This document shows, piece after piece, positions 9,408-44,161 of a stretch of DNA of 64,000 nucleotides. The DNA is from Candidatus Woesearchaeota archaeon (GTDB lineage: Archaea; Nanobdellota; Nanobdellia; Woesearchaeales; GCA-2686295), in the NCBI GenBank assembly GCA_937912225.1, contig CALDOJ010000034.1, positions 556 through 64,555 on the forward strand, in the 5' to 3' direction. The number at the start of each line of letters is the position of its first letter. The stretch's first letter is position 1. The position numbers and the translations under genes were made by a program. The notes beneath the pieces were generated by a model. The model searched no databases. It was not told the DNA's origin and worked only from the letters and a program-made list of their open reading frames with translations.

Positions 9408-9456
9408 AGTCTCGGAGAGATTTAAGTAACAATTGTACAGAAGGAGGCATAAAAAA

Positions 9457-10365: not shown

Positions 10366-10366
10366 A

Positions 10367-18804: not shown

Positions 18805-18868
18805 ATAAAATGCGACCCCAAACAAAAATAGAATTTTTGAAAATTCATAATTTCAAAAAGGTGAAACC

Positions 18869-19306: not shown

Positions 19307-19307
19307 A

Positions 19308-19922: not shown

Positions 19923-19923
19923 A

Positions 19924-20694: not shown

Positions 20695-20760
20695 AAAACG
20701 TATGACTGAGATTTGAGCTAGCGATAGCTCTACAATAAAAAACTAGTAGGAGGAGATAAA

Positions 20761-21759: not shown

Positions 21760-21825
21760 AGATGTTCAAAAAAATATTTTCAGGGTGCCAGAAAAATAAA
21801 GTTTTTCTGAGCATAAGTGAGGTAA

Positions 21826-22188
21826 ATGAAAATGGGAGATGAAATTGCAGATAGGGTTGCAGAAGCAAATTATTCCATAGTTACAACTACTAGAGCCAAA
21901 TATTTTGGAGAAGTAGTGCCTAATGGTGGAAAAGGAATAACTATAAATTCTGCGTATGAAGTGCAAGGTGAAAAAGAACCGCAGGCAGTTGCAATGGGTT
22001 TTATTAGAGGCAAACTCTATGGCGAAAACAAGAAAATCGAATTATCGGATGCTCTTGTTGAGTCCGTAACAGATGCTTTAGATGAGACTCGAATTTTGAA
22101 GACTTATGAAGCATTGCTACCTGAAGCAGAGAAACGAGCTCTTGGAATTATGACTTTCAAAGCGCTTGAAGACTTGCTTTCGAAATAA
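21826..22188 (+). CDS. Hypothetical protein (120 aa)
   Basis: ORF preceded by RBS gaggtaaatg. No family recognised. Confidence 0.45.
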   Translation: MKMGDEIADRVAEANYSIVTTTRAKYFGEVVPNGGKGITINSAYEVQGEKEPQAVAMGFIRGKLYGENKKIELSDALVESVTDALDETRILKTYEALLPEAEKRALGIMTFKALEDLLSK

Positions 22189-22226
22189 TTTTTTGAGGGG
22201 CTTTTCGCCCTTCTTTTTATTTTAAA

Positions 22227-23207: not shown

Positions 23208-23209
23208 AA

Positions 23210-26678: not shown

Positions 26679-26688
26679 GTTTATCTAC

Positions 26689-28431: not shown

Positions 28432-28433
28432 TT

Positions 28434-29567
28434 TTATACCTCTATAATTCTTATTTGTGTTCCTAACACTGAATCAGCCACTCTTGAAGAATATTTTGCA
28501 GGAGTTATAATCATTTCATCTCTCCAGTCTTCTCGATATATGACTTGTGCTAGTTCTTTTCCTTTTGTTTTATGATTAGGAGCGTAAGTGTATTGTCTTG
28601 AAAATCTTAAAAATCCTGCTTCCGGGTCTTCTTCTAATAATTCTTTTGTTATTGGTAATTGTGGAATTTCATTCGATCCTGTTTGATATTTTGTTTCAAA
28701 AGGACCTATTAAGGATTTTGATACATGAACTGGATGTAAACTTTCAAAGCCTTCATCTATTTTTTTTAAAACATACCATGCAGCTAAACTATCAGAATTA
28801 AATTTTAGTGCAGATCTTAACTGATTAGTTAATTGATATTCACCATTACTATCTTTTTCAATATGTGTTTCTCTAATATCCTGCCATAAATCTATAGTGT
28901 ATGCTTGAAACATTCCAGATGCTAATGAATAATTTACGAACGAGATATTAAATTGAGTTTCTCCAGCGAATGATTTTAATTTTGTAATTGTAGGTTTCAA
29001 ATCACTTGACTCCCAACCTAATAGAGTTGCATCTTTTAGTTGTTCAAGATAATTTATTCTCATAGCTTGTTTATGAATATCTTCAGCTACTCCGCCCACA
29101 TTTCCAATTTCAACATCATCTTGTAATAATAATCTGTCAAGATTTTGAGCTAATTTTGTAAAAGAAGGTAATTTTTTTAGTTTGTCTGGTGCAGATTTTT
29201 TTAGTTTGTTTAAAGCTATAAAATCGAATTGCCAAGGTAAACCTGACGAAGCGTTTATGTTTGCTTCTTCAAAATACCCTTTATTCTTTGAAGGATCATC
29301 TTTAGAAGTTTGCCAATCTAACCATTGATATTCTTCTCTTACAGTTTGAACCATGTTTGAAAGAGTTTTATAAGTGTTAGTAAACTTTGGTAACCTTTGC
29401 CAATCCCAATCTTTTCTTTTTGCAAAGTCTTCCATAGTTTTGAAATGATCAGCTTCTTTTTCAAAAACTAAATTTTGAGCTAATACGCCTAGAAATTTAT
29501 CTATTTGACTCAAGTAACGTGATTGTTCATCTCCTATTAATTTATGTTCTCTCACAACTCTTGTCAT
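28434..29567 (-). CDS. Hypothetical protein (377 aa)
   Basis: Long ORF with an aggtataaaaatg RBS. Trp-rich. No family. Confidence 0.6.
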   Translation of the reverse strand: MTRVVREHKLIGDEQSRYLSQIDKFLGVLAQNLVFEKEADHFKTMEDFAKRKDWDWQRLPKFTNTYKTLSNMVQTVREEYQWLDWQTSKDDPSKNKGYFEEANINASSGLPWQFDFIALNKLKKSAPDKLKKLPSFTKLAQNLDRLLLQDDVEIGNVGGVAEDIHKQAMRINYLEQLKDATLLGWESSDLKPTITKLKSFAGETQFNISFVNYSLASGMFQAYTIDLWQDIRETHIEKDSNGEYQLTNQLRSALKFNSDSLAAWYVLKKIDEGFESLHPVHVSKSLIGPFETKYQTGSNEIPQLPITKELLEEDPEAGFLRFSRQYTYAPNHKTKGKELAQVIYREDWRDEMIITPAKYSSRVADSVLGTQIRIIEV

Positions 29568-29595
29568 TTTTGCACCTCTTTAAAAATAAATTTAA

Positions 29596-29626
29596 AAAAT
29601 GCTCAGCAGATAATCTGCTGGCATGC
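29596..29626 (-). terminator. Candidate intra-operon terminator or attenuator: a hairpin followed by a T-tract on the minus strand
   Basis: The minus strand reads gccagcagattatctgctgagcattttttaaatttattttt. This is a 6-bp stem (cagcag/ctgctg), a 5-nt loop and a T-run. It lies between the stop of 29667..30896 and the start of 28434..29567. Confidence 0.3.
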
Positions 29627-29666
29627 TCAAAACTAAAAATTTCTGAGCAAAAAATAAAAAATAACT

Positions 29667-30896
29667 TCACTGATGCGTTGCATAGTGAGGTTGTTCTGGA
29701 ATAGCAGATAATCTTTGCTGGTTCTCTGCCCATTCCATCTTTTGATTGTTAAGGTCTTTCATAAAGCCTTGAACTTGTTGAGTTACAGCTTCTGCTTTAT
29801 CAACATCATAGATAGGAGTTTTTAATAAATCAAAAACCTCTGCAGCTAAATGCGTAGTTAAATGTGCATTAGCTTCCATTAACTGTTGTGATTTAGCAGC
29901 AACTTCTACTAAAGTCTTTTTAATATCTAAAGCAGCAACACCGGCTGAAGCAATCTTTCCTTGTATTTTAAATACAGGAACCATATCTTCCATTGCGTGT
30001 TTATATTTAATTTCAAGTTCGCTCATTGAGTCTATCAAAGCATTGATAGCTACATAGTTTGCTTTTGAAGCAGCTGCAGCTCCTTTTGCTGATTGAACTC
30101 CTTCTGCCGAGTCTAATATTTCTCTTCTAATACTAGAAACTACTCCATCTGCAGATAATTTTCCATCCAGAACTCCATATTTCATGTCTAAGACTTGAGT
30201 CATTTCACTTGTCAATCTGTCTACAGATTTCAAATCACTTGATTCTTTTGCTACTTGTATTTGACTTTCATAATCAACAAGAACTGTTTCAATATCTTTT
30301 AGTTCTGTTTGTAATTTCTCAACTTCACTCTTTGCTTGTTCCATATCAGAAGAAGTATATAATCCATTTTTCAGACTATCAATTAATTTTTGATCAAGAG
30401 ATTTCATATGAGCAACATTTTCAACTTGCATTGATTCTGCATTTGCTCTTCCATCAATTGCGTTTTGATATTGGTCTCCTAAGACTTCAGCTATACGATC
30501 AACCATGTATTCTAATGCATCTCCTTTTTTTCCAGCTGCATCAATTTTCATTTGTCTAGCTTTTCCTTTTCGTCCAATAAATTCATTGAATTTAATTCTA
30601 ATACCTTCTCCAGTAGTATATAATTTCTTTGAACCAATTAATGTTTGAAAATTAACATTTAATTTTCCATATGTTTCTGCTAATTCAACCATATCTAGTT
30701 GTAAAGCAGCCATTTCTTTGTGAATAGCACCAGTACTTGTTTGTGTTGAAGAAGGCACTTTACCTAATCTTTTTTTGTCCATTTCTAGTGTTTCTTCTGA
30801 TGCGTCAAACGCTTCATACACTTCTTCTTTAGAAGTTGATTTTTCAACTTTATATTTATCAGTTAGTTCTTCCAATTTTGTTTTTTGTTCACTCAT
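29667..30896 (-). CDS. Long coiled-coil protein (409 aa), all alpha-helical. A TelA- or PspA-like architecture is possible but unproven.
   Basis: Heptad-rich sequence throughout. Strong RBS (aggaggaataaaatg). It has its own promoter-like region upstream. Confidence 0.6.
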   Translation of the reverse strand: MSEQKTKLEELTDKYKVEKSTSKEEVYEAFDASEETLEMDKKRLGKVPSSTQTSTGAIHKEMAALQLDMVELAETYGKLNVNFQTLIGSKKLYTTGEGIRIKFNEFIGRKGKARQMKIDAAGKKGDALEYMVDRIAEVLGDQYQNAIDGRANAESMQVENVAHMKSLDQKLIDSLKNGLYTSSDMEQAKSEVEKLQTELKDIETVLVDYESQIQVAKESSDLKSVDRLTSEMTQVLDMKYGVLDGKLSADGVVSSIRREILDSAEGVQSAKGAAAASKANYVAINALIDSMSELEIKYKHAMEDMVPVFKIQGKIASAGVAALDIKKTLVEVAAKSQQLMEANAHLTTHLAAEVFDLLKTPIYDVDKAEAVTQQVQGFMKDLNNQKMEWAENQQRLSAIPEQPHYATHQ

Positions 30897-30963
30897 TTTA
30901 TTCCTCCTAATATACTCTTTTTTTTATAAAATATCGAAAATATACTCTTTTTTATCACTGCGA

Positions 30964-30990
30964 AGTAGTTATTATATATAAATGTTTCTA
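30964..30990 (-). promoter_or_regulatory. Putative promoter of the 29667..30896 unit, with a TATA box, a BRE-like box and an inverted AGTAGTTA 8-mer
   Basis: The minus strand reads agaaacatttatatataataactacttcg. Two 14-bp direct repeats (aaaaaagagtatat) sit in the downstream 5' leader at about 30905-30960. Confidence 0.35.
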
Positions 30991-32421
30991 TTAAAAGTCT
31001 TTAATATCATATAAACCACCTATTGCACTGCCAACATCCCTGATCATACCGCCCGCGAATTGCCCGTTTGAAACAGGAACAACTTTAGTATCAGGTCCTG
31101 CAGCCATTCCAATTTCTTTAGTTATAGCCCGAGTACTTGAGTTTCCATCAATTAAAAACAATCTAAGCATGATTTCAGGACAATCTCGAAATTTAGAAGC
31201 TGAATTAATAGCTGCTTCAACAGAATCAGGCGCTCCATCACTAATTAAATAAGCAATAGAAGGACCTTTGCCTTGCAATACGTTAAACAACCAATCTAAA
31301 GCTAAATGAGTAGGTGTGCCACCATAAGGATGCACATTCTTCATCAAATCAGCAGTAGAAACAGGCCTAACTGAATCTTGACTATAAACAGATAAATAAA
31401 CATTATTCGAAGGATTTAATTGTCTCATCAAAGAATGATTAGCAAGAACAGTCTTTTGAGCCATAGAAAAACGATCACCCTCCATACTACCACTAAGATC
31501 AAGACTCATAGCAGTATCAATAGATACTTTAGTAGACTCAAAACTCTGCGATTTACCAACAATTAAATAAGGAAATTGAGGCTTTCTATAACCTCTTGTA
31601 CGAGAATAAATAGTAGATTGAACCCAATCAACATCAGATAATTCAGATAAATCTTCCATTTCATCCCAATGATCAACTACACCATCATAAGTTCTTTTTA
31701 AGTTTGACATGAACCCAGAATGACCGTCAGATGTCTCAATACCTTTAACAATTTCATCCAAAAAGATATCTTCTAAAGACTTCACAATTTGTTGCTCATC
31801 AAACTGCAGAACACCAGATTCATTAGATACATATTCAGAACTTTCAATAAAAGTTTTAAGTTTCTCTTTAGCAATTCTTGTAGCATCTGTTTTAATATTA
31901 ACTTCAGATTTTTGATCTTCCAGTTTAGATTCAATATCACCCTTCTTATTCTCAAATTCATCAGCAATGTTTCGAGTTTGTTCTTCTTTTTCAGTTATAC
32001 TCTGTTGATAAGCATCAGAAGCACCAACTAAATAATCATTAGCGCCACGCACAGCATCAGTATTATTAAGCAAAGTTTGTTCTGCTTGACTTAAAGCTAA
32101 AAGTTCATCTGTAAGATTAGCATCATAAACTTCTTGAATACTATCCCTAGTTTCAATTGCATAGGCTTCAATCATTTTATCAGTTTTTTTTGCATACCAA
32201 CCTTTGAAAACTTTTTTTCCAACAGCAAGTCTAAGACGAGCAGAACCAGATAAATCAAGAAAATCATGAACTATTTCACGAAAAACTGTTTCAGATTTAT
32301 AACGATTAGAAAAACGTTCAATAAACTCTTCTAATTGAGGAACTTGAGAAATACCACTAAAAGAACTAACAGGTTCTTGACCTTCATTCACAATTTCATC
32401 TATTTTATCTTCCATTTTCAA
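30991..32421 (-). CDS. Protein with a coiled-coil N-terminus and a C-terminal vWA domain
   Basis: MIDAS LDLSGSM, GGTPTHLALDW and ISDGAPD in the last ~190 aa. The N-terminal ~270 aa is a helical coiled coil. Confidence 0.75.
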   Translation of the reverse strand: MKMEDKIDEIVNEGQEPVSSFSGISQVPQLEEFIERFSNRYKSETVFREIVHDFLDLSGSARLRLAVGKKVFKGWYAKKTDKMIEAYAIETRDSIQEVYDANLTDELLALSQAEQTLLNNTDAVRGANDYLVGASDAYQQSITEKEEQTRNIADEFENKKGDIESKLEDQKSEVNIKTDATRIAKEKLKTFIESSEYVSNESGVLQFDEQQIVKSLEDIFLDEIVKGIETSDGHSGFMSNLKRTYDGVVDHWDEMEDLSELSDVDWVQSTIYSRTRGYRKPQFPYLIVGKSQSFESTKVSIDTAMSLDLSGSMEGDRFSMAQKTVLANHSLMRQLNPSNNVYLSVYSQDSVRPVSTADLMKNVHPYGGTPTHLALDWLFNVLQGKGPSIAYLISDGAPDSVEAAINSASKFRDCPEIMLRLFLIDGNSSTRAITKEIGMAAGPDTKVVPVSNGQFAGGMIRDVGSAIGGLYDIKDF

Positions 32422-33227
32422 AATAATTTATAATTAAGTACTTTCCAGACTTTTCTACCAAATCGATAAATAGGCCCGTCTTTTTGTTCAGTAGCAGTTT
32501 TTCGTTGCCAAAAATGTTTCTTCTCAACTAAAGTATCAAGAGTTTCACCTTCTAAAGGATCAATCTCCCCTTTAACAGTTGCAAGATCTAAAGCTCTTTG
32601 AATATTAGAACTCCCATAATAAGCAAAACTTTGATCTGCATAAGCAGGATCCATACTGGAAACATCAAGATGACTTACACGTTTCTTTCGTTTAGCTTTT
32701 TTCTTTTCAGGACCTGAATAACCATCTTGTAAAGCATCATTAATTCTCATAAGTTTTTCATAAGCTTCACGACCGCCAACTGCTTGTAATTTCTCTTCAA
32801 TTCTCGCCCTCATTTCATTAAGACGAGCTTGAGCAGCAGTATACGCTTTATTTGATGAATCAACTTTAGAATCGGCGTCTCTTTTAGCTCTTTCTTTATC
32901 AGCAACTTCTTTACCAAGAGTTTGTTCAATTTCAAAAAGAACTTGTTCTTTTTCAAATTCTTCTGCAGCAATAGCTTTTTTTTGTTGATAATCAAGCTTA
33001 TCAAGTGCAGCATCTTTTTGAAACTCAAGATTCTCAGCGATTTGTTCAGATAACTGTTCAATAATACTATAATCATTAAGAATCGCATCAACAGCATTTG
33101 TTGCAGAAGAGCCATTCTTCCAAGCATCAACCATTGCACGCTTAATAACTTCGTCTATATTAGAAAAATCAATAGGCGGAATACGAAATAATGCACAATC
33201 CGCTAACCTATAATCGCTAAGTCTCAT
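32418..33227 (-). CDS. Coiled-coil protein (269 aa) with a basic patch
   Basis: Helical with a KKKAKRKKR stretch. It overlaps the next gene by 4 bp. The Lys/Leu-rich ORF inside it in another frame is spurious. Confidence 0.55.
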   Translation of the reverse strand: MRLSDYRLADCALFRIPPIDFSNIDEVIKRAMVDAWKNGSSATNAVDAILNDYSIIEQLSEQIAENLEFQKDAALDKLDYQQKKAIAAEEFEKEQVLFEIEQTLGKEVADKERAKRDADSKVDSSNKAYTAAQARLNEMRARIEEKLQAVGGREAYEKLMRINDALQDGYSGPEKKKAKRKKRVSHLDVSSMDPAYADQSFAYYGSSNIQRALDLATVKGEIDPLEGETLDTLVEKKHFWQRKTATEQKDGPIYRFGRKVWKVLNYKLF

Positions 33228-33237
33228 TGTTCAGAGA

Positions 33238-35532
33238 TTACTTTTCTCCACCAATTTCACAACTAGTGTTCTCTCTGCTCTTCATAAAATACTCCATCGA
33301 TGTAATTAATTCAGAAACAGTTATTTCACCAAAGTTTGGTTGTTGTCTAAACAAGTAATCCATGAAAGGAAACATTATTTTTGCTTCTTGTTGTCTCTTT
33401 GAAGGATTCGGACTATAAGCCTGTTTAACTTGGTTAAAATTAGCAGTTGCAACTTCAACATTATTTTCATATGAATCTAATTCTTGAATTAAATTATCTT
33501 CAATTTCAGGAATTTGAGTCTTTGCAATAGCAACTTCTTTATAAGCTCTGCACCACCAAGTATCTTCTTCTCGATTCAAGACATCATTAAAATTGTTCTC
33601 AACCCATCCAATAAGTGCCTCTTTAGAACTAATATCCGCGTCACGAGTACTTTCTTGAACTCTAGAACAAAAAGCGAATTGAATACCAGAAATAGCATAT
33701 TCTGCAGTTGCAACTTCAGGAGCTTCTTCATAAAACAATTTATCAAGAGTTAATTGTGCTCTTGCAGCATCTAATGCATCAAACTTTGCACGATTACTTC
33801 CAGTTTCTTTTTGCTTTCCAGCACCAGTATATTCTGCTCTAAATTTTAAAAATAAAGCATCAACTGCTCGTTCAATAATTACAGGCATTTGAACCTTTCT
33901 AATTGATAACTCACCATTATCTCTGTGCGTATCTCCAACGTCATAAGATTCAACTTCATTTGCTTCTTTATGATAACCTTTTCTAGTAATACTATAACTA
34001 GTATCTTCATCTGTTGGATAACGAATAGCCATAAGAGCCATTCGATCATTCAAAGGACCAGTAAACACAGTATGATCATTCGCAGTTCCAATTATTAAAG
34101 CATCCGCAGGATATTCAAATCTTAATTGATCAGGTTTAATAGTTTCATCTTCAAGCGCTTTTAACATGCTACTATAAGCTTGAGGTCTTAACTTATCCAT
34201 CTCATCAAAAAATGCAATGCCATTATTTGTTCTTACAAGCAAACCTGCATGAAATCCTTCAGGATCGAAGTCACTTTCTCGTTTACCAGTTGTAGTACCA
34301 TCAAGTTTAGGAGTTTTATAACCTGCCAAATCCATTCGTTTTAAACCTTCAGTTCCTTCTGAACTTTCAATACCCATACCTTTACCATACTTTGCAACTT
34401 TGACTTTTACATCTTTAGCAGCAGGTTTTTTGAAAAAACCAGTATCTTTAAAATTAGGGTCGTAAGAAATTTTACATTCAGGACAAGCATCAATTATTTT
34501 TGAAAAGTCCTCATCAAAAAGACTATAAGGATTACATTGTGCTTGACAACCATCAACAATGAAAATAACTTCTTGTTGTTGTGCAATATCAATAATATCT
34601 GCACTAATTTGCGATTTTCCACCACCCGGAGGACCATAGAAAACAAAGTCTTTTCCAAGTAATAAAGCCTTTACAACTCTTTCGGCTCTTTTTGTACTAA
34701 TAACAGTTTTTGGAAAGAATTCGCCAAGAACATATCTTTTAATTTCTTCTTCTTTATCAGCAGGAACTATTTGTCCTAAACTAGAAGCTTGAATATCTTC
34801 ATAATGACCATTAATTCCTAATTTAAAGTTAGTTCTTCTTCCTTGTTTAGCAATAGGTTCATCAAACTCGACATCTATTGTATTACGAGAAGGCACATAA
34901 TGTTTAAGCATAGCAGTTGCTCCCGCCTCAATTTTAATTCCACCACTAATTCGTTCAGAATTAGAATCCCAAACACTTGATGCATCAAATCCTTTTTTAA
35001 ATCTGATCTTATGTCCAAGTTTTTTATCAGCAACAACTTCATCATCAAGAGAATAACCAACAGTTATAGTTCTCTTTCCAGGAAATAGTTTTAAATTATT
35101 CAAAGGAACATATAATCCATGTTCATCATTAAGAGCACCATTCAAATTATTAGCACCTTCAAATCCTTTATTAAATTCAATTCCAACTAAAGGTACTCCT
35201 CTAGTAGTTATTGGCGTTTTAATAACTCCCTTCATACCAGCTATAGGTCGCCCTTCATAATTAGACATTGCTTCAACTTTCATTCCTTCTTGAGCATACT
35301 TCATTATTTCCTCAGCACCAGTTACTAATGGAGGAACTTTTTCAGTTATACTGTTGAATGCAGAATTCCATTTTCCAAGCATTTCATCATTTATTTGCGG
35401 TACAATTGTTTTGAGAATTGACTCTAATCTTCTACGAGTGATTAAAGCGAGATGTGTTGAAGAAGTTTTTGGAACAACTCCTAAATTTACTAAATCTTTT
35501 CCTGTTTTGACCTTAAGGTAATCTTCAAGCAT
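33238..35532 (-). CDS. AAA+ ATPase of the ChlI/MCM/ComM-like clade. A Cys4 zinc-ribbon insertion lies between Walker A and Walker B.
   Basis: Walker A FYGPPGGGKSQ, CQAQCNPY...CPECK insertion, Walker B IAFFDEMDKL, sensor-1 IIGTAN and Arg-finger-like LNDRMALMAIRY. RBS ggaggcg. A promoter sits upstream. Confidence 0.8.
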   Translation of the reverse strand: MLEDYLKVKTGKDLVNLGVVPKTSSTHLALITRRRLESILKTIVPQINDEMLGKWNSAFNSITEKVPPLVTGAEEIMKYAQEGMKVEAMSNYEGRPIAGMKGVIKTPITTRGVPLVGIEFNKGFEGANNLNGALNDEHGLYVPLNNLKLFPGKRTITVGYSLDDEVVADKKLGHKIRFKKGFDASSVWDSNSERISGGIKIEAGATAMLKHYVPSRNTIDVEFDEPIAKQGRRTNFKLGINGHYEDIQASSLGQIVPADKEEEIKRYVLGEFFPKTVISTKRAERVVKALLLGKDFVFYGPPGGGKSQISADIIDIAQQQEVIFIVDGCQAQCNPYSLFDEDFSKIIDACPECKISYDPNFKDTGFFKKPAAKDVKVKVAKYGKGMGIESSEGTEGLKRMDLAGYKTPKLDGTTTGKRESDFDPEGFHAGLLVRTNNGIAFFDEMDKLRPQAYSSMLKALEDETIKPDQLRFEYPADALIIGTANDHTVFTGPLNDRMALMAIRYPTDEDTSYSITRKGYHKEANEVESYDVGDTHRDNGELSIRKVQMPVIIERAVDALFLKFRAEYTGAGKQKETGSNRAKFDALDAARAQLTLDKLFYEEAPEVATAEYAISGIQFAFCSRVQESTRDADISSKEALIGWVENNFNDVLNREEDTWWCRAYKEVAIAKTQIPEIEDNLIQELDSYENNVEVATANFNQVKQAYSPNPSKRQQEAKIMFPFMDYLFRQQPNFGEITVSELITSMEYFMKSRENTSCEIGGEK

Positions 35533-35647: not shown

Positions 35648-35676
35648 TATATAAATGTTTCGATTTGTAACTACTA
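35648..35676 (-). promoter_or_regulatory. Putative promoter of the AAA+/vWA unit: the AGTAGTTA box, a BRE-like cgaaac and the TATA box tttatata
   Basis: The minus strand reads cttaatagtagttacaaatcgaaacatttatatac, about 115 nt upstream of the ATG at 35532. Confidence 0.4.
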
Positions 35677-35698
35677 TTAAGTGATAATAAATTGGGTC

Positions 35699-36835
35699 TT
35701 AGAAATAATTCCTAATCATATCAGTAAAAGCCCTAGCAATATTATTCAACTGCCTTTTTTCAAACTTTGTTTCAGCAAGAGTTTGACCCTCTAAAGGTTT
35801 ATCAGAACCTACACCAGCAAAGAAATATCTTACTGCATCAACACCATCATAATGATTATGATAACTAGCCATAGGGCCCCATTCCATATCAATAGTTGTA
35901 GCACCAAGATCTCTTGCTTCTTCTAACACAACTCTTTTTTGTCTTAAGATTGATGCAGTATTCAAAGTCGAACCTTCATGAAATGAACCAACATATTTTT
36001 CAAGCATTTCCGTAGCTTTAGGATTAATTAATAATTGATTATTAATTGGATAAATTGTTTGTAAATTATCCTTCAATAATTTCTCATCCATAAATCCTGT
36101 TGGTACAAATACATCTCCAACATTAGCTTTTGAATCTAAAACTCCAACTTTACCATAATGAAAAATATTAACCCACGCACCCAATACTTCATTATTAGTT
36201 GCTAAACAAAATTGTTCTATAACATTCTTTGCCTGGTCAGCAAAAACATAATCAAAATTAACAGCAAAATATCCGCCCATGTCAAGCAATCTGTAATTCA
36301 AAAAATCATTTTTTATTTCATCAATTACTTCAATACCTTCATCTAATGGAAAATTATCAAACGGTCCAAAAATAACATTTAAAACACCATCATGAGTAAA
36401 CTCTTCAACATCCAATCTATCATAAGCCTCATTTACAAGTTCAAATGCTAAATCTCTAAATCTTGCACTTGCAAATTTTTGTTCGCCACCAAAATGTTTT
36501 ATATCCCAGTTTAGTTTTTGTTCTGTTGCTCTTCCTAAAATACCAAAATGATGCCTGATTCTATCATAACGTATATCGCCTTTAGTATTTATTACATGAA
36601 GCGTTCCTGTTGCTTCATCATAGAAATTGCTTTCAACAGAAGCAATTGGTTTAAACTTGAGAAAGCCCCCCATCTCAGGTTCTACTTCCTCTGGTTTAAA
36701 TCCATTATGAAGAACTAAATGTTCTAAGTTCTCAAGTTGTTTTGCCCTGATTGCCTCATCAGGATGCAGTTGTCTATCAACAGTATATTGCACTCTTTTT
36801 TCATCATCCATTAAATCTGTATATATATCAGTCAT
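35699..36835 (-). CDS. Phosphorylase-superfamily (PNP/MTAN-like) nucleosidase-domain protein with an N-terminal extension
   Basis: VGDVFVPTGFM (resembles GDVVV), ATTIDMEWGPMA (resembles the VEMEAAA catalytic-region motif) and FFAGVGSD (resembles RAISD), all in the C-terminal half. Confidence 0.65.
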   Translation of the reverse strand: MTDIYTDLMDDEKRVQYTVDRQLHPDEAIRAKQLENLEHLVLHNGFKPEEVEPEMGGFLKFKPIASVESNFYDEATGTLHVINTKGDIRYDRIRHHFGILGRATEQKLNWDIKHFGGEQKFASARFRDLAFELVNEAYDRLDVEEFTHDGVLNVIFGPFDNFPLDEGIEVIDEIKNDFLNYRLLDMGGYFAVNFDYVFADQAKNVIEQFCLATNNEVLGAWVNIFHYGKVGVLDSKANVGDVFVPTGFMDEKLLKDNLQTIYPINNQLLINPKATEMLEKYVGSFHEGSTLNTASILRQKRVVLEEARDLGATTIDMEWGPMASYHNHYDGVDAVRYFFAGVGSDKPLEGQTLAETKFEKRQLNNIARAFTDMIRNYF

Positions 36836-36836
36836 T

Positions 36837-37037
36837 TTAATAGTAAGTATTCCTCATTCTTCTTTCTCTTCTGCCAGAGCCATATAAATTAAAATGGTCT
36901 CCTGCTTTATCCCAAATAGCTCCAGCTCCAGCTCCAAGAGCAGTATATCCTAAAAGAACTAATCCAAATAAGCCTATACGGAATTTGTTTAAATTAGATC
37001 CTGCTTTAAAGTTCATTTCATAACCATCCATAGCCAT
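36837..37037 (-). CDS. Small membrane protein (66 aa)
   Basis: One Gly/Ala-rich TM helix (IGLFGLVLLGYTALGAGAGAIW). Its stop is 1 nt from the downstream start. Confidence 0.4.
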   Translation of the reverse strand: MAMDGYEMNFKAGSNLNKFRIGLFGLVLLGYTALGAGAGAIWDKAGDHFNLYGSGRRERRMRNTYY

Positions 37038-37070
37038 TTTTTATTTAATAATTCGTTTCAATATATAAAG

Positions 37071-37850
37071 CTACCTATTTTTACCACTCTTTAGTGGTTT
37101 ATTCAAATATTTTTGCATATGATTGAAAGGATCGTCATAACAAAGACAACCAAGAGGAGTTAAAAAATCAGAGAATGTTTGTGCATAAGCAACCAAATCA
37201 CTTATTAAATCTTTATGGTCTTGAAAATTTTGATAAACAACTTCTCTGCCAACAACTCTACCTTTGTTAAGTTCAGATTTATTAATACAATGATCTTTAA
37301 TTAACCAATCAATTGTTTCAGTATCATTAGGATCAAAAATAGCACCAAAATCAATTTGATTAATTTTCAAATCACCAGTTAATAAAACATTAACAGCTCG
37401 CCTATCTTTCAAAGCTAAAGTGTTAACAAGCTCCATTGAATAACCAAAACTATATGCAACTTCCAATTCTTTACCTTCAGGAACATAAAATTTTTTGCCA
37501 GGAAGACCTTCCATCATGACGAGATTTTCATTATGAAGGCCATCCCAAGTAATAAAATTGTGATTCGCACCAGCCAAAATATTATCCAAAGCCATACCAA
37601 GAGCTTCTCTAGAAGCACCTTCCAAAGAAGTTTTAACATAAACATCTTTCTTAGAACCGTTCTTAAGAACAGCTTCATACTTATCAACAGAATAACCAGT
37701 TTTAATTTCAGAAACGTGTTTGAACTTCACAGGTTTTTCACCAAACAAAACACCAGATAATTGTTTAATTCTTCGCGTACGATAATTAAAATGACTAGGT
37801 GCAGGCGGAAGACGAACACGACCAAGAAGTTTATCCAAATCAACATTCAT
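37071..37850 (-). CDS. PI3/PI4-kinase-like atypical kinase-fold protein, group A paralog 6
   Basis: DVYVK Lys, alphaC Glu (SREALGM), catalytic loop ALKDRRAVNVLL and IDFGAIF. Confidence 0.7.
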   Translation of the reverse strand: MNVDLDKLLGRVRLPPAPSHFNYRTRRIKQLSGVLFGEKPVKFKHVSEIKTGYSVDKYEAVLKNGSKKDVYVKTSLEGASREALGMALDNILAGANHNFITWDGLHNENLVMMEGLPGKKFYVPEGKELEVAYSFGYSMELVNTLALKDRRAVNVLLTGDLKINQIDFGAIFDPNDTETIDWLIKDHCINKSELNKGRVVGREVVYQNFQDHKDLISDLVAYAQTFSDFLTPLGCLCYDDPFNHMQKYLNKPLKSGKNR

Positions 37851-38605
37851 CGAGCAACCCCCAAATAATCACACATATAAACAAACGGATCATCACAAAC
37901 AGGTTTTTGAACACAAGTGAAATCTTCAAAAGACCTTGCATAAACAATTAAATCTTCAATTAAATTTTTATTATCTTTAAAATTTTGACGCACCACTTCT
38001 TTACCAGCAACTCGTCCTTTATTTAATTGAACAGAATCCATACTATGAAAATCAATTAAATATTCAATAGAACCATTATCACCAGGATAAAAAAGCGAAC
38101 CAAAATCAATATGATTAATATTAAAGGTTTCAGTTAACAAAACATTAGTAACCCATCTATCTTTAAGAGATAAAGCATTTACTAATTCCATCGAATATCC
38201 AAGATTAAAAGCAACTTCTTTTTCTTTGCCTTTTGGCACATAAAAATCCTCTCCAGGAAGATTTTCCATCACCAGATTATGATTACCAAAACGATCATCC
38301 CATAAAAAATAATTATGACCTGCATCTTGCAACATATTTGCCAAAGTCATTCCAAGCGCTTCTTTGTAAACACCTTCCCAAGACTGTTTAACATAAAAAT
38401 CCTTTTTTGAACCATCTTGAAAAGTAGCTTTATACATATGAACAGTTGATGCATGACCAAGATCACAAGAATGACTAATTTTCTTAGGCATTTCATCAAA
38501 TAATAAACTAGATAATTGTTTAATTCTACGCTTATAAGTATTAACATTAAAAGGCTCAGGAAGTTCAACAATTCCAAGATGTTTATCTAAAACAATATCA
38601 GTCAT
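37847..38605 (-). CDS. PI3/PI4-kinase-like atypical kinase-fold protein, group A paralog 5
   Basis: DFYVK, LKDRWVTNVLL and IDFGSLF. 4-bp overlaps on both sides. Confidence 0.7.
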   Translation of the reverse strand: MTDIVLDKHLGIVELPEPFNVNTYKRRIKQLSSLLFDEMPKKISHSCDLGHASTVHMYKATFQDGSKKDFYVKQSWEGVYKEALGMTLANMLQDAGHNYFLWDDRFGNHNLVMENLPGEDFYVPKGKEKEVAFNLGYSMELVNALSLKDRWVTNVLLTETFNINHIDFGSLFYPGDNGSIEYLIDFHSMDSVQLNKGRVAGKEVVRQNFKDNKNLIEDLIVYARSFEDFTCVQKPVCDDPFVYMCDYLGVAR

Positions 38606-39399
38606 CGAGAAACCCCCAAATAAAGTTTCATATGAGTAAAAGGATCATCTAAAATATAATCATCCTCTTCAGAACACATTTTCTTAGAAAAATAATTAAC
38701 CATTGATTCAATCTCAGGTTGATATTTTAAAAAATTATTACGAATAAGTTTATAGCCATCAATTGTTCCTTCAGAAACAGCATCTTCATCTAAATGAAAC
38801 CATTTAATATGGTAATCTCCTTGAAATAAATCCTTATGATAAAATAAACAATCATTATCAAGATGTCGAACAGCTCCTTTTTCAGATACTAGTATGTTTC
38901 CAGCATGTCGATCATCTAATGCTAAAGTTCTAGCCAATTCTAAAGCAATGCCAAAAGAATAACTAATTTCAGTTTTTAGAGTTTCAGGAAAACCCAATCT
39001 AGAACCTCGCAGTTGATCAATAACAATCATTCTTTCAGGAGTTGAATCATCTAAAGAATCTGAATAAAGAAATTTTTGTTCTTCACCAAGTAATAAATTC
39101 TGTAAAGTTATGCCAACCGCTTCAAACAAAGGATGAGATTTTGGTTCTTTTGCAAAGAAAGTTTCTGAACGTCCATTTTCAAGCAAGATATTAAAACCTG
39201 TAATAGTAGTATAAATCTCCTTTAACATAGCAATACCAAAACTTTTAATTGAAGCTATTTCATCAACTGAAACACCATATAAATCTGATGCAACTTTCTT
39301 TTGAAGAGCTAAATCCTCATGAAAAGTTTTAAGACTGGGAAGAGCAACTTCATAACTAAACAATTCTTTTACAGTATCAGAAAGTTCAGGCAAACTCAT
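38602..39399 (-). CDS. PI3/PI4-kinase-like atypical kinase-fold protein, group A paralog 4. Its DFG position is degenerate.
   Basis: TFFAKEP, LDDRHAGNILV and HLDNDCLF, which has no DFG. Confidence 0.7.
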   Translation of the reverse strand: MSLPELSDTVKELFSYEVALPSLKTFHEDLALQKKVASDLYGVSVDEIASIKSFGIAMLKEIYTTITGFNILLENGRSETFFAKEPKSHPLFEAVGITLQNLLLGEEQKFLYSDSLDDSTPERMIVIDQLRGSRLGFPETLKTEISYSFGIALELARTLALDDRHAGNILVSEKGAVRHLDNDCLFYHKDLFQGDYHIKWFHLDEDAVSEGTIDGYKLIRNNFLKYQPEIESMVNYFSKKMCSEEDDYILDDPFTHMKLYLGVSR

Positions 39400-40148
39400 C
39401 GCTTAACCCCCAGATAATCACACATGTAAGCAAACGGATCATTCAAAACATCAGGTCTTGAAGCAAAAGGTATTTGTTCATCAACCCAATCAACAACCAT
39501 TTTAATATCATCTTTATTATCAATAAATCGTTGACGAATAGCTTCATGAGCTGAAAGTCTTCCTTTGTTAAATTTACGACGACTTAAACCATAAGCATCT
39601 GCAACTTTCGCACCAGTTATCAAATCTTTTTCATCAAATAAACATTCATAATCAATATGTCTGATAGTTCCTCTCCCATCAACTAATAAGTTTCCAGTAT
39701 TTCTATCTTTTAAATGCAAAACCATTTCTAATTCTGAAGCCACACCAAGATTAAAACTGGCTCTTTTCTTACGACCTACATTTTTAAAAATTCTTCCAGG
39801 AATCGCTTCCATCAAAATAGAACTAGGATCTGTTGTATAATCATCAAGTTGAGGAATTGCATAACTCCAATTCTCACCAGTTAAAACATTGTTCAAATAC
39901 CAACCAAGTCCTTCTAATAAAGAACCTGTATGAAAACAATCTTTAACATAAAAAGTCTTATTAGAACCATCACCCAAAGTTAATTCATAACCTTTAATCA
40001 TTTCTTGATTAGTAATTAAACTACTAGAAACAATTTTTTCATCAATACCAAATAAAGCTTTAGGAACATCAGCCATTCTTTTCTCAGAATATACATCATA
40101 AAAAGAAGGAACATCTCCAATCCGAAGTAATTTTTCAGGCGAAGTCAA
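39396..40148 (-). CDS. PI3/PI4-kinase-like atypical kinase-fold protein, group A paralog 3
   Basis: TFYVKD, LKDRNTGNLLV and HIDYECLF. Confidence 0.7.
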   Translation of the reverse strand: MTSPEKLLRIGDVPSFYDVYSEKRMADVPKALFGIDEKIVSSSLITNQEMIKGYELTLGDGSNKTFYVKDCFHTGSLLEGLGWYLNNVLTGENWSYAIPQLDDYTTDPSSILMEAIPGRIFKNVGRKKRASFNLGVASELEMVLHLKDRNTGNLLVDGRGTIRHIDYECLFDEKDLITGAKVADAYGLSRRKFNKGRLSAHEAIRQRFIDNKDDIKMVVDWVDEQIPFASRPDVLNDPFAYMCDYLGVKR

Positions 40149-40936
40149 TTTATTTCACCCTCTAATTTTTGTTTTATATAATCAAAAGGAGAAATAGTTT
40201 CAAACAATTCAGATCTTAATAAACCATCATAAGCCCAGTTAGCCAAATCGCGAATTAGTTCTTCATTAGTTTTGAAATTAACTCTCATCTCTTCACGAGC
40301 ATCAAGTCTGCCTTTTTCAAATTCCTCTTCAGAATAACCACTATTCTTAACTAATTGTTTACCAGTTCGATCATCCCAACCAGCCCAAAATAATGCTCCA
40401 AAATCTATATTACGAATTACTAAGTTATCATCAATTAACATATTAGGACTTCTTCGATCAGCAAGATTTAAAATTTTGGCAGATTCAAAAGCCCGACCCA
40501 TTGAATAAGAAATTTCAGTTAAGAAATCATAATTAACATTAAAAGTTGTTCCAGGAACTTCATCCATAATAACCACATTAATAAAATTATCAAGCAAATC
40601 CAATTTATTAACTAACATCAAGAAATTTCTGTCTTCACCAGTTAATAGATTATTCAAAGTAATACCAACTGCTTCTTGAAACGCACCAGTCACATAGCAA
40701 TCTTCTTCTTCTTTAACATAATAAGTTTTAGAAGTTCCATCTTTAAGCATTAATTTATGACCTGCAACGTTCGAATTTCCAGATGCAAAAGGTTCATCAA
40801 TAAGAATATCGTCTGAATCAACCCCATACATTTCTCTAGCAACATATCTGCCTAAATTTTGAGAATCAAGAAGAGTAACTTCATCAGTAAAAGGCCTATA
40901 ATTCAACAAGTCTTTCATTCTATCTGGAAAACTCAT
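40145..40936 (-). CDS. PI3/PI4-kinase-like atypical kinase-fold protein, group A paralog 2
   Basis: TYYVKE, LADRRSPNMLI and IDFGALF. Confidence 0.7.
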   Translation of the reverse strand: MSFPDRMKDLLNYRPFTDEVTLLDSQNLGRYVAREMYGVDSDDILIDEPFASGNSNVAGHKLMLKDGTSKTYYVKEEEDCYVTGAFQEAVGITLNNLLTGEDRNFLMLVNKLDLLDNFINVVIMDEVPGTTFNVNYDFLTEISYSMGRAFESAKILNLADRRSPNMLIDDNLVIRNIDFGALFWAGWDDRTGKQLVKNSGYSEEEFEKGRLDAREEMRVNFKTNEELIRDLANWAYDGLLRSELFETISPFDYIKQKLEGEIN

Positions 40937-41736
40937 TTCTCAGCCTCCAAATAAAGTTTCATATAAGAAAAAGGATCTTCAATATGCTTTTCATCATCCA
41001 AATATTGCAAACCAGATTGTTCGCTAAAATATGTTAATACATCTTTAATTAATGATTCATTATCTAAAAAATTTTTAACAATTATTTTTCTTGCATCTGA
41101 TTGTCCTTGTGAAACTAATTCTGCATCAAGTCCCAGAACATATCCTCCTTTAAAAATATCTTTTAACATTCCAAGATTCCAAGAATATTCTTTATTAAAA
41201 ATAGTTTCATAATCAACATTTCTAATAATAGAATTTTCACAAATAACCAAATTTGAATTATTACGGTCGGTTAAAGAAAGAGTTTTAGCCAATTCTAAAC
41301 TAGCACCAAAACTTTGACTCATATTAGTACTAGCATCATTAAAATATGTCACACTAGTTCCAATATCTTCCATAGCAACATAACCAAATTTCCAATCACC
41401 AGTTTCAGATCTGCTAGCAACAAAGTTATGGTTTTCACCTAAAAGAATATTGCTTAAAGTCCAACCAACAGCTTCACTTAAAGAACTTTCAAGACATTTC
41501 TTATAATAAAATTGTTTAATTAAACCATCCTTAAAAAGAGTTTCATATACTCGAGTGTTAGGAGACCAAACAGTATCTAAGAAATTAACAGTTATAATTT
41601 CTGATTCAGGAACACCATAAAGTGAACTTGCAACAGACTCCATAATATCAGGATTATTTTTAACTTTTGAAAAATCTGGAAGAGAGGTTAACCTAAGTAA
41701 ATCTTCAATCTTTGTTTGAGTTGATTGTTTAGTCAT
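40933..41736 (-). CDS. PI3/PI4-kinase-like atypical kinase-fold protein, group A paralog 1
   Basis: QFYYKK, LTDRNNSNLVI and VDYETIF. Confidence 0.7.
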   Translation of the reverse strand: MTKQSTQTKIEDLLRLTSLPDFSKVKNNPDIMESVASSLYGVPESEIITVNFLDTVWSPNTRVYETLFKDGLIKQFYYKKCLESSLSEAVGWTLSNILLGENHNFVASRSETGDWKFGYVAMEDIGTSVTYFNDASTNMSQSFGASLELAKTLSLTDRNNSNLVICENSIIRNVDYETIFNKEYSWNLGMLKDIFKGGYVLGLDAELVSQGQSDARKIIVKNFLDNESLIKDVLTYFSEQSGLQYLDDEKHIEDPFSYMKLYLEAEK

Positions 41737-42224
41737 TTTATTCGACGATATTCAAAAACATTTTTTTTTAAGTATAATTGCATATGACTTGGTAAATGTT
41801 CACCAATCTGATTTATTGCATCAGGCGATTGGTTATGAATAAGTAAACTATGTAAAGCTTCAACAGGAATATTTTGAAATGAAATAAATTCTCTAAAATA
41901 ATCAGTCGATTTTCTATAAGGATTTCTTTCAATACCTAACTCCTGAGCAAATTTTTCAGCCATAGATTCATAACCCGAATATTTGAACAATTCACTATTT
42001 TCTTTAATATAATTATTATCAAGAACGAATCCAGTACTACCACCCCAAAAATCTACATTTGCTTTTTTTGGCATTGGAAATTTTTCTTCCCAATAAGCAA
42101 AACAAATTCTATCATTAGATGATTCAAAATAATTTTTATTACCTGTTTCAGAAGGTAATCTTAAACCTTCACTAAGTATAGGAAGGACAGATATCACTTC
42201 AGTCATATGTGTCAATATCGGCAT
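41733..42224 (-). CDS. Small paralog family member 3 (~163 aa, unknown domain)
   Basis: Alignment with its two paralogs places the true start at MPILTHMTEV, 1 nt after the upstream stop. Conserved motifs are THxT, LPSETGN, DRI(C/S)F, NIPVE(A/G) and a C-terminal HMQLYL...YRRIK. Confidence 0.6.
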   Translation of the reverse strand: MPILTHMTEVISVLPILSEGLRLPSETGNKNYFESSNDRICFAYWEEKFPMPKKANVDFWGGSTGFVLDNNYIKENSELFKYSGYESMAEKFAQELGIERNPYRKSTDYFREFISFQNIPVEALHSLLIHNQSPDAINQIGEHLPSHMQLYLKKNVFEYRRIK

Positions 42225-42225
42225 T

Positions 42226-42750
42226 TTATTTAATCCTCCGATAAAATGAGTCATCAGTTTGTTTAGTATATAATCCCATATGTGCTGGCAAAATTGATTT
42301 AATTTTTTGAAATTCTTCTGTCTCAAGAGATAATATTGTATTAAATCTAGAATCTAAAAATAAACTGTGAATTCCTTCTACAGGAATATTTTCAAAAGAT
42401 ACTACTTCATTAAAATTAAATCTTGGAACTTCTAAGTCTATAACTTCCATTCCTTGTCTATTTGCATAATCAATTACTTCTTCACTCTTAGTAATATAAC
42501 ATTTGAATTCGTCTTTATTTTCAGATATGTACTTTGGGTCTAAAACTAAATTAATGTCATTATTCCAACCGCTTAAATAAGTATTTTCGCTTTCTAAATC
42601 TAAATCAGGATTACATGAAAAACTTATTCTATCTGTAGGAAAAAACCAATCCCAATTACTATTACCTGTTTCTCGTGGTTTTTTAATCCCATTTTTAAAA
42701 ATAGGTTCTAGATATTCCAGATAAGTTGAATGTGATAAAACTCCGTTCAT
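42226..42750 (-). CDS. Small paralog family member 2 (174 aa, unknown domain)
   Basis: KPRETGNSNW, DRISF, NIPVEG, AHMGLY...FYRRIK. Confidence 0.6.
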   Translation of the reverse strand: MNGVLSHSTYLEYLEPIFKNGIKKPRETGNSNWDWFFPTDRISFSCNPDLDLESENTYLSGWNNDINLVLDPKYISENKDEFKCYITKSEEVIDYANRQGMEVIDLEVPRFNFNEVVSFENIPVEGIHSLFLDSRFNTILSLETEEFQKIKSILPAHMGLYTKQTDDSFYRRIK

Positions 42751-43256
42751 TTCATCCTCCGATAAAATAAATCATCTGTTTGTTTTGAATATAATCGAAT
42801 ATGAGCAGGTGCTTGTTTTTGAATTTCATTAATTTCAGATTTTGAATCTGATTGGTGAAATAATGCATATAATCCTTCAACAGGAATATTTGCAAATGAA
42901 ACTACTTCATTAGGAACTTCATGTTTGGTTGGATTTTTAATAGTCCTAATTCCAAGTTCTTTGATAAATGTTTGAAAAATATCTTCACGCGCAGGTTCTG
43001 CTTCAAAATTATTCAAATTATCTTTTAAGTAATCAGGATCGACAAAGAATCCAGTTCTTTCTCCATACCAAAAATCATTAAAACCAATACTTGTTTTTGG
43101 AAAAGGTGTTTCTTCAGGATGAAGTAAAAAGCTTATTCTATCACTCGCAGAATACTCTGGCCAATTACAATTACCAGTTTCAGAAGGTAATTTTAATCCT
43201 TCTTTAAGTATTAAAGGCACATATACATTCCGTGTTGCATGAGTTAGAATTGTCAT
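42747..43256 (-). CDS. Small paralog family member 1 (~170 aa, unknown domain)
   Basis: The true start is probably MTILTHATRN. LPSETGNCNW, DRISF, NIPVEG, AHIRLY...FYRRMK. Confidence 0.6.
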   Translation of the reverse strand: MTILTHATRNVYVPLILKEGLKLPSETGNCNWPEYSASDRISFLLHPEETPFPKTSIGFNDFWYGERTGFFVDPDYLKDNLNNFEAEPAREDIFQTFIKELGIRTIKNPTKHEVPNEVVSFANIPVEGLYALFHQSDSKSEINEIQKQAPAHIRLYSKQTDDLFYRRMK

Positions 43257-43257
43257 T

Positions 43258-44160: not shown

Positions 44161-44161
44161 T

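Follow-up and report, generated by a model that had tools for sequence, protein, structure and literature searches.

The gene studied here, which encodes a nucleosidase-like protein of 378 amino acids (aa) in a Candidatus Woesearchaeota archaeon, lies directly downstream of an array of kinase-like genes, and this position raises the question of whether the protein serves the array or the metabolism of the cell. It is contained in a stretch of 64,000 nucleotides (nt; contig CALDOJ010000034.1 of assembly GCA_937912225.1, positions 556 to 64,555 of the forward strand), hereafter called the window; homologues of the window's proteins carry the source names Woesearchaeota, Nanoarchaeota or Pacearchaeota, which places the window in a DPANN archaeon. 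A sequence-only reading had described two products downstream of the array, a 66-aa single-pass membrane protein and the 378-aa protein, the latter placed in the PNP_UDP_1 superfamily, and the two open reading frames (ORFs) lie exactly where that reading had put them, at 36837-37037 (-) and 35699-36835 (-), respectively. It had also proposed that the pair closes the array operon and that the nucleosidase is an effector coupled to an array that consumes adenosine triphosphate (ATP), two claims that the results below do not bear out. We favor, with a probability of roughly 55%, a housekeeping enzyme resembling AMP (adenosine monophosphate) nucleosidase (AMN), which would cleave N-ribosyl bonds in the metabolism of nicotinamide adenine dinucleotide and its phosphate [NAD(P)], with AMP as the leading candidate substrate and its adjacency to the array the result of rearrangement.

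When the 378-aa protein was compared with Pfam, residues 223 to 335 matched positions 72 to 191 of the PNP_UDP_1 profile (PF01048) with 27.9 bits, above the gathering cut-off of 25.1, and residues 188 to 324 matched DUF6909 (PF21850) with 31.4 bits (cut-off, 27), a domain also found in the precomputed annotation of an identical database protein. An AlphaFold2 (AF2) model built on 17 homologues reached a predicted local distance difference test score (pLDDT) of 90.6 and a predicted template modeling score (pTM) of 0.89. Searched against PDB with Foldseek, this model returned 646 matches at E ≤ 1e-3; the 50 matches listed were all nucleoside phosphorylase-I (NP-I) enzymes, with a probability of 1.0 and a target TM-score of ~0.7 over ~240 columns. 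They included Sulfolobus 5'-methylthioadenosine (MTA) phosphorylase (MTAP), purine nucleoside phosphorylases (PNPs), uridine phosphorylases, MTA/S-adenosylhomocysteine nucleosidase (MTAN) and AMN, the best match being an archaeal MTA phosphorylase. The superfamily assignment of the sequence-only reading thus holds, and the modeled protein has a three-layer alpha/beta NP-I fold. Limits drawn from DSSP analysis of the AF2 model divide it into a family-specific N-terminal alpha/beta domain (residues 1-148; 36392-36835 (-)) and a catalytic NP-I domain (residues 149-378; 35702-36391 (-)), in which the order of strands and helices parallels that of MTAN and PNP and which Foldseek aligned over ~240 columns to PNP/MTAP chains of 230 aa. 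The N-terminal domain modeled alone had a pLDDT of 90.7; a fold search with it against PDB gave no significant match (best E, 0.46), with weak partial resemblances to uridine phosphorylase.

An exhaustive hidden Markov model (HMM) search retrieved 122 clusters (50% identity) related to the 378-aa protein, which form three tiers, namely, a core, distant full-length members and longer DUF6909-like proteins. Conservation was scored, and a family profile built, on an alignment of sequences from 91 of the 122 clusters. Residues M317, E318, S344, D345, P347, G228 and G231 were kept in at least 90% of the 91 sequences, as were Y17, R21, E68, R89 and R92 of the N-terminal domain. The three motifs named by the sequence-only reading are all present: GDVFV (residues 240-244; 36104-36118 (-)) is a strand motif that aligned to GDIVV of MTAN and GDYLLP/GDYVLA of AMNs; TIDMEWGPMA (residues 314-323; 35867-35896 (-)) contains M317/E318, the predicted ribose-binding Met-Glu pair, which aligned to M404/E405 of AMN and M173/E174 of MTAN; and AGVGSD (residues 340-345) opens the longer AGVGSDKPLEG (residues 340-350; 35786-35818 (-)), in which S344/D345 would be the catalytic Ser-Asp of an AMN-type SDKPLxG motif. 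The catalytic Asp and Glu, whose conservation that reading had left to an alignment, are therefore both kept, as D345 and E318. A further loop, FHYGKVG (residues 225-231; 36143-36163 (-)), was located with hhalign against E. coli MTAN and DeoD, whose sequences were checked as identical to the PDB entries, and by HMM alignment to AMN chains; it is the counterpart of R87-G92 in PNP, N73-G78 in MTAN and the G(K/H)CGG loop of AMNs. The hhalign alignments with the single E. coli sequences were short and of low probability, and consistent with the motifs. They place His226 at the position of the phosphate-binding Arg87 of PNP, and Lys229 at that of PNP Ser90 and MTAN Ser76, the latter in agreement with the Lys/His of AMNs.

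When the 91-sequence profile was run against all solved structures, AMP nucleosidases came first (1ybf, E 2.9e-4; 7uwq, 1t8r and 2guw, ~1.2e-3), PNPs followed, and MTANs ranked last with E values of 1 to 2. Neither phmmer with the single sequence nor a 17-sequence profile gave anything useful against PDB sequences, the AMP nucleosidases being reached only with the 91-sequence profile. The profile-AMN alignment spans GKVGgL on GKCGGL, IDME on IDME and vSDKPLxG on VSDKPLHG; on the E. coli enzyme, F-H-Y-G-K-V-G falls on L-M-I-G-H-C-G (G-K-C-G in 1ybf), I-D-M-E on I402-D-M404-E405, and S344/D345 on S427/D428 of S427-D428-K-P-L-H-G, the last by HMM alignment to 1t8r, 2guw, 7uwq and 1ybf. By profile comparison, then, the nearest characterized relative of the 378-aa protein is AMP nucleosidase. 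Compared with NCBIfam, the protein matched no family at E ≤ 0.01, AMN equivalogs included, and is therefore no orthologue of Amn, MtnN or DeoD; its extra N-terminal domain likewise sets it apart from ordinary orthologues of DeoD and of MtnN, the MTA/SAH nucleosidase that the sequence-only reading had entertained as an alternative (SAH, S-adenosylhomocysteine). Judged by alignment and model, an AMN-like catalytic domain with an intact active site, joined to a new N-terminal domain, defines an uncharacterized family found in DPANN archaea. Such a protein could in principle have an NP-I fold without catalysis and serve to sense a ligand or to regulate, with NAD kinase (NADK) as one conceivable target: a ligand site could be built from R21, E68, R89 and R92, near-invariant charged positions in the N-terminal domain, and adjacency to the NAD kinase gene, described next, is persistent. 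That at least 90% of the 91 divergent sequences retain both the Met-Glu and the Ser-Asp pair is nonetheless unexpected for a pseudo-enzyme, and we consider this the least probable of all the explanations discussed here.

What the enzyme does is suggested by where its genes lie. Exact-protein look-ups, together with a scan covering 185,579 species genomes, yielded 21 other independent loci with a family member, all from DPANN archaea (numbered with the prefix L), and all their ORFs were compared with those of the window by blastp. In 17 of the 21, the family gene is adjacent to or no more than 6 kb from NAD genes, i.e., those for NAD kinase, NadE, nicotinamide mononucleotide (NMN) adenylyltransferase (NMNAT), NUDIX enzyme or NrtR; the remaining four loci are contigs of 2.7 to 5.6 kb. 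NAD kinase directly adjoins the family gene in eight loci (L001, L002, L003, L005, L006, L014, L023 and L032) and lies 0.3 to 5.3 kb away in five (L009, L018, L022, L025 and L026), NrtR is its immediate neighbor in L017, L020 and L024, and in L033 the genes for NMNAT, NUDIX, NadE, PncA and PncB are 1.4 kb away. In most loci the family gene and NAD kinase are convergent with overlapping stop codons, while co-directional arrangements have the family gene downstream of NADK (L005) or upstream of it (L023), and in L017 and L024 the family gene is divergent from NrtR. Because the orientation varies and the linkage persists in the distant tier (L032 and L033; profile E 1e-28 to 1e-32), it is not simply inherited synteny. 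The family gene is found beside de novo-type clusters (nadBAC in the window, NadA in L032) and beside salvage-type clusters (PncA/PncB in L002, L005 and L033) alike, which points to the common trunk of the pathway, or to the recycling of a by-product, as its place of action.

Based on these data, we propose that the Met-Glu pair would hold the ribose hydroxyls and that the departing base would be protonated by the Ser-Asp of SDKPLxG, as happens in AMN, MTAN and PNP. The substrate would be an adenine nucleotide that arises as a by-product when NAD is made or turned over, with AMP from NadE or the NUDIX enzyme as the leading candidate; AMP would be split into adenine and ribose-5-phosphate, and the ribose-5-phosphate could supply phosphoribosyl pyrophosphate for NadC or PncB. 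An adenine nucleotide is favored because the Ser-Asp of SDKPLxG is the purine-protonating apparatus of AMN, AMP because NadE and the NUDIX enzyme both produce it, and a by-product role because the family accompanies both cluster types. That the protein is an active enzyme, which substrate it uses, that it would hydrolyze and not phosphorolyze this substrate, and what the N-terminal domain does are all points that we infer.

The same NAD context would suit cleavage of a pyridine compound equally well. Here nicotinamide riboside (NR) or NMN, or the nicotinate forms NaMN or NaR, would be split by hydrolysis or phosphorolysis, and the resulting nicotinamide or nicotinate would enter the PncA-PncB route, by analogy with yeast PNP/Urh1-type enzymes. 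Nicotinamidase (isochorismatase) and nicotinate phosphoribosyltransferase genes are indeed present in the clusters of L002, L005 and L033, and the neighboring slot is occupied by an IU-nucleoside hydrolase in L003 and by an ADP-ribosylglycohydrolase in several other loci, occupants which suggest that one task of the cluster is to cleave glycosidic bonds in molecules derived from NAD. Yet the family also stands beside de novo-type clusters with no visible PncA/PncB (window, L001 and L032), and the invariant Ser-Asp in SDKPLxG is a hallmark of purine N7 protonation that a pyridinium leaving group would render superfluous. We also know of no NR- or NMN-specific NP-I enzyme with which to compare the family, which we count against pyridine salvage. 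On this evidence we regard it as a genuine but clearly minor possibility.

A different substrate is suggested by the second recurrent neighbor of the family gene, a class I S-adenosylmethionine (SAM) methyltransferase of ~550 aa with large unannotated N- and C-terminal regions, which occurs next to it in six genomes. The methyltransferase gene is immediately upstream, with stop and start codons overlapping or abutting, in L001 (8346-10004), L012 (435-1454), L023 (8286-9938) and L026 (756-2402), and downstream in L010 (2365-4023) and L018 (13423-15075). The enzyme might accordingly be an MTAN/MTAP-like scavenger of SAH, 5'-deoxyadenosine or MTA released by neighboring SAM-dependent enzymes, and in keeping with this, the window, L006 and L033 each carry radical-SAM genes within the NAD cluster, and the top Foldseek match is an archaeal MTA phosphorylase. 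The profile, however, places AMP nucleosidases first and MTANs last, neither MtnN nor MTAP was matched in NCBIfam, Ser76 of MTAN is replaced by Lys229, and inspection of the sequence revealed no evident counterpart of MTAN Glu12 in the GP(H/F)xS/N segment. Moreover, most loci have no methyltransferase neighbor, and the ~550-aa methyltransferase is absent from the window. A scavenger of SAM by-products is thus unlikely.

Several observations weigh against an AMN-like enzyme of NAD(P) metabolism acting on AMP. The lack of both an NCBIfam AMN match and the AMN N-terminal regulatory domain makes the protein AMN-like and not an Amn orthologue. Its gene is convergent with NAD kinase in most genomes, hence not co-transcribed with it, and the palindrome upstream of the gene differs from the NrtR-type operator found at NAD operons. 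The methyltransferase neighbor in six genomes and the radical-SAM genes in some NAD clusters suggest a SAM by-product as substrate. The distance between the gene and the NAD cluster in the window is 10.4 kb, and the array is separated from the gene by just 33 nt and one small ORF, so that read-through co-expression with the array is possible in this one species. Finally, AMP is preferred over NMN, NR, ADP-ribose and NAD(P) on the basis of motif similarity and context.

We turn now to how the gene is laid out and probably expressed. The last array gene (37071-37850) ends 33 nt before the start of the 66-aa ORF, the gap between the 66-aa and 378-aa ORFs is 1 nt, and the 378-aa gene is followed, after a gap of 166 nt, by seven further co-directional genes. 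This arrangement was identical in 21/21 contigs of this species, which derive from several samples. The 66-aa ORF looks coding by codon usage: its in-frame score is 0.57 (median of real genes in 66-codon windows, 0.49), and every other frame scores below -0.3. Its product contains a single hydrophobic stretch, LFGLVLLGYTALGAGAGAI (Kyte-Doolittle 19-residue maximum, 1.77), in agreement with the single-pass membrane protein predicted earlier. No homologue of it was found in any of the 21 other PNP-like loci (blastp at 1e-5; tblastn), and it is identical in every contig of this species; by these searches, it is a species-restricted ORFan.

Upstream of the pair lies a palindrome, CCACTAAAGAGTGG (37084-37097, unstranded), a candidate operator situated 60 nt upstream of the ATG of the 66-aa ORF and inside the 3' end of the last array gene. 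It is accompanied by a TATA box, TTTATATA (37062-37069 (-)), 32 nt upstream of the same ATG, a distance that implies a leaderless or near-leaderless transcript. The element TCACT-N4-AGTGA recurs at -51 to -67 of the orthologous units of L001 (a methyltransferase/PNP-like pair), L003, L006, L020 and L025, usually with a TATA box ~29 nt downstream of it. In L003 and L006 that TATA box is 30 to 31 nt before the ATG of the PNP-like gene, a place taken in the window by the ATG of the 66-aa ORF; given this shared spacing, the 66-aa ORF is a first cistron peculiar to this species that has been placed between the conserved promoter and the conserved gene. The 66-aa/378-aa pair is thus predicted to have its own palindrome-plus-TATA promoter, common to orthologues, from which the nucleosidase gene would be co-transcribed with the 66-aa membrane ORF. 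Directly after the 378-aa stop codon, a second palindrome, TCACTTAATAGTAG (35671-35684), and a TATA box (35648-35655) make up the predicted promoter of the seven following genes (35648-35684 (-)), and this combination marks the likely 3' boundary of the two-gene unit. The pair therefore does not close the array operon as had been supposed, since the seven co-directional genes continue beyond it, and the pair and the operon that follows each have promoter-like elements.

Perfect copies of TCACT-N4-AGTGA numbered three in 341 kb, against 0.34 expected, and all three fell within the 2.3 kb that precede PNP-like units; allowing up to two mismatches, that 2.3 kb contained seven matches against ~0.8 expected. 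The short core CACT-N4-AGTG with one mismatch was not enriched across the window (13 versus 16.5 expected), so that the significance of the element is only position-specific and cross-genome. As a separate observation, 6 of 20 window matches with up to two mismatches are at promoter positions (4499, 13146, 16353, 30955, 35671 and 37084), preceding NrtR, a UvrD-like helicase, a 124-aa ORF, the 409-aa gene of the seven-gene operon, its 764-aa gene and the 66-aa ORF, respectively; this placement hints at a small regulon, while the total count in the window is not above chance.

TCACT-N4-AGTGA was considered as the operator of NrtR and rejected, the NrtR-type site being a different palindrome that is found at NAD operons. 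A GT-N7-AC palindrome core has been described for bacterial NrtR (PMC2330246), and a 17-bp palindrome with this core, AGTGTA-N5-TACACT, occurs in the window at 4574-4590, 6843-6859, 6897-6913, 16832-16848 and 16887-16903, where its copies lie at the NrtR, nadBAC and NadE-NADK cluster promoters; those at 6843 and 16832 have the same 17-mer sequence. The same palindrome is present at NAD operons or NrtR genes of eight loci (L001, L002, L005, L006, L009, L020, L024 and L033), and it is absent upstream of PNP-like units except in the shared divergent NrtR/PNP-like region of L024. From the distribution of these sites, this looks like an archaeal NrtR regulon.

For the factor that binds TCACT-N4-AGTGA, a TrmB-family regulator is a lead only. 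Such a gene lies directly downstream of the family gene in 2 of the 21 loci (L005, 11194-11937 (-); L025, 8410-9144 (-)), and no TrmB homologue was found in the window. The palindrome, as TCAC-N6-GTGA, resembles the Thermococcales TGM site of TrmB-like regulators. A more elaborate account can be assembled from these elements: the AMN-like nucleosidase would be an unrecognized archaeal step of NAD(P) recycling, its N-terminal domain would make it specific for a pyridine dinucleotide or breakdown product (NMN, ADP-ribose, 2',5'-ADP or NAD(P)) or place it under allosteric control by such a compound, and a TrmB-like regulator would act through TCACT-N4-AGTGA. Since the same type of operator precedes the seven-gene operon, the enzyme would also have been drawn into a lineage-specific regulon next to the array. 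We offer this account as a tentative one and think it rather doubtful as a whole.

The surroundings of the gene in the window indicate how it came to lie beside the array. The NAD cluster (17033-25278 (+); Pfam and NCBIfam), which blastp matched to the clusters that adjoin the family gene in other loci, encodes a radical SAM protein, NadE, a NUDIX protein, NMNAT, a Pkinase-like protein, two unknown proteins, a pyruvate-kinase-barrel-like protein, an ADP-ribosylglycohydrolase and NAD kinase, and the 10.4 kb between this cluster and the nucleosidase gene are measured from the end of NAD kinase (25278) to that of the nucleosidase gene (35699). Upstream of the cluster are nadB-nadA-nadC (7785-11344) and an NrtR-type NAD regulator with NUDIX and winged-helix domains (4591-5280 (+); Pfam NrtR_WHD, 4.7e-26), the orthologues of which adjoin the family gene in L017, L020 and L024. 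The NAD clusters of the window (where the genes in question span 19924-23207 (+)) and of L001-L003, L009, L023, L025 and L032 always include a 256-aa Hanks-type protein-kinase-like gene, an unannotated gene of ~330 aa and a gene for a ~300-aa protein with a pyruvate-kinase barrel only, and sometimes a 120-aa gene; at 50 to 69% identity between genomes, these genes are much more strongly conserved than that of the nucleosidase.

Between NAD kinase and the nucleosidase gene is a conserved seven-gene DPANN operon (25293-35532 (-)), whose products of 764, 269, 476, 409, 377, 580 and 461 aa include two AAA+ ATPases, the rest having no Pfam domains. The 764-aa protein, a MoxR/Mg-chelatase-like AAA+ protein, has 42 to 50% identical homologues throughout DPANN. 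The same seven genes, in the same order and of the same sizes, are found in L034 (10001-20072) and L035 (2171-12247), far from any PNP-like gene, and blastp at 1e-5 detected no homologues of the block in the 21 other PNP-like loci. On the other side is the kinase-like array (37071-46773 (-)). What had been read as a twelve-gene kinase array consists of nine PI3/PI4-kinase-like paralogues and three small paralogues of a different family (41733-43352; 174 to 201 aa) that match only each other. A Lys, a Glu, a catalytic loop of the form DRxxxN (mostly DRHxxN) and an IDF(G) motif are kept in all nine. Array homologues were found in 0/21 other PNP-like loci, either by blastp at 1e-5 or with an array HMM run against all ORFs (best E, 0.3). 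A nine-sequence array profile searched against 5.8 billion proteins returned only self matches of this species. The nine-sequence alignment was too variable for a DNA-pattern scan of metagenome contigs, and the three-sequence array alignment used in its place hit only a 100%-identical contig of this species.

The positions of the NAD cluster and the seven-gene operon imply that an ancestral NADK/PNP-like junction was split by the conserved operon, with the species-specific array lying on the other side. The last array paralogue, for its part, has a C-terminal extension ending in YLNKPLKSGKNR, where its sisters end in YLGVAR, and the codons of this extension (37071-37100) contain the palindrome of the nucleosidase promoter. 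Juxtaposition of the array onto a pre-existing promoter is consistent with these sequences. We read the adjacency of nucleosidase and array as a lineage-specific rearrangement with no functional pairing.

This bears directly on the proposal that the nucleosidase is a conflict or defense effector that depletes ATP or NAD once triggered, with the twelve-gene array as its sensor or signaling part. Its appeal is understandable, given the tight same-strand spacing of array, 66-aa ORF and 378-aa gene and an array that is species-specific and rich in paralogues, like many variable islands; in addition, one PNP_UDP_1 clade comprises proven ATP-nucleosidase immune effectors, Cap17 and Detocs DtcC (bioRxiv 10.1101/2023.01.24.525353). 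According to the same work, the PNP domains used in defense, which are fused or linked to sensors, fall into a single distinct clade, and the majority of PNP proteins have housekeeping roles. For the family studied here, the array is present at 0/21 other loci and NAD genes at 17/21, and the conserved promoter element of the unit is its own and is common to orthologues that have no array. PADLOC v2.0.0 (E ≤ 0.1) returned no model for the 378-aa protein, the 66-aa ORF or the array proteins, a result that is indicative only, as the presence of Cap17 and DtcC models in it was unchecked; PHROG gave no match for the 378-aa protein or the array proteins. The co-occurrence with kinase-like genes in other genomes that would be expected of a functional pair was not seen at any of the 21 other loci, and conservation of the family independently of the array, which the sequence-only reading itself had held to speak against its proposal, indicates that the pairing is coincidental. 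An effector role is therefore very improbable.

If the protein is instead an AMN-like enzyme of NAD(P) metabolism, its significance is of a different kind. DPANN genomes are very small and salvage-dependent, and an unannotated but conserved enzyme whose gene keeps company with those for NAD kinase, NadE and NMNAT probably closes a gap in cofactor or nucleotide recycling. A simple enzyme assay has a well-defined target in this family, which comprises ~120 clusters at 50% identity and combines clear catalytic residues with a new N-terminal domain and a conserved operator. The kinase-like array is then to be judged by itself, without a nucleosidase effector.

Among known proteins, DUF6909, a family without known function, is matched by the 378-aa protein only at positions 344 to 466 of its 535-position model, which correspond to the NP-I core; a literature search on DUF6909, NMN nucleosidase and structural details of AMN yielded nothing usable. 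Cap17 of CBASS and DtcC of Detocs likewise carry a PNP_UDP_1 domain, which in their case cleaves the adenine-ribose bond of a nucleotide. Members of their clade have a fused or linked sensor or signaling partner, whereas the 378-aa protein has no sensor or receiver fusion, and none of the 21 loci shows an association of its family with defense genes, NAD genes being found instead. MtnN/Pfs (1jys) has the same fold, and hhalign pairs IFHYGKVG...GDVFV with its IINTGSAG...GDIVV, and DMEW with EMEA. Its profile match is weak (E ~1-2) and it has no NCBIfam match here; Ser76 gives way to Lys229, and no counterpart of the water-activating Glu12 was evident on inspection of the sequence, no acidic residue following G157-P158. 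The hexameric DeoD-type NP-I enzymes, i.e., PNP, MTA phosphorylase and uridine phosphorylase (1je1 and 1pr0), are the top Foldseek matches (E ~1e-10) and have both the Met-Glu and the Ser-Asp motifs. Of the three phosphate-binding arginines of DeoD/Udp enzymes, which in E. coli PNP are Arg24, Arg43* and Arg87, the last is replaced by His226 and no Arg was seen, again by inspection, at the Arg24 position of the GP(H/F)xS/N segment; the 378-aa protein differs further in its additional N-terminal domain. Closest of all is Amn (EC 3.2.2.4; 1t8r, 2guw, 7uwq and 1ybf), the best sequence-profile match of the family among solved structures, although the match is of only ~21 to 23 bits at low identity, the E. 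coli enzyme has 484 aa against 378 aa here, and the Amn N-terminal regulatory domain had no Pfam match in the 378-aa protein at E ≤ 1. The two have in common the NP-I catalytic fold, the G(K/H)xGG loop, IDME, SDKPLxG and an extra N-terminal domain; what separates them further is the occurrence of the 378-aa protein's family in DPANN archaea and its linkage to NAD gene clusters.

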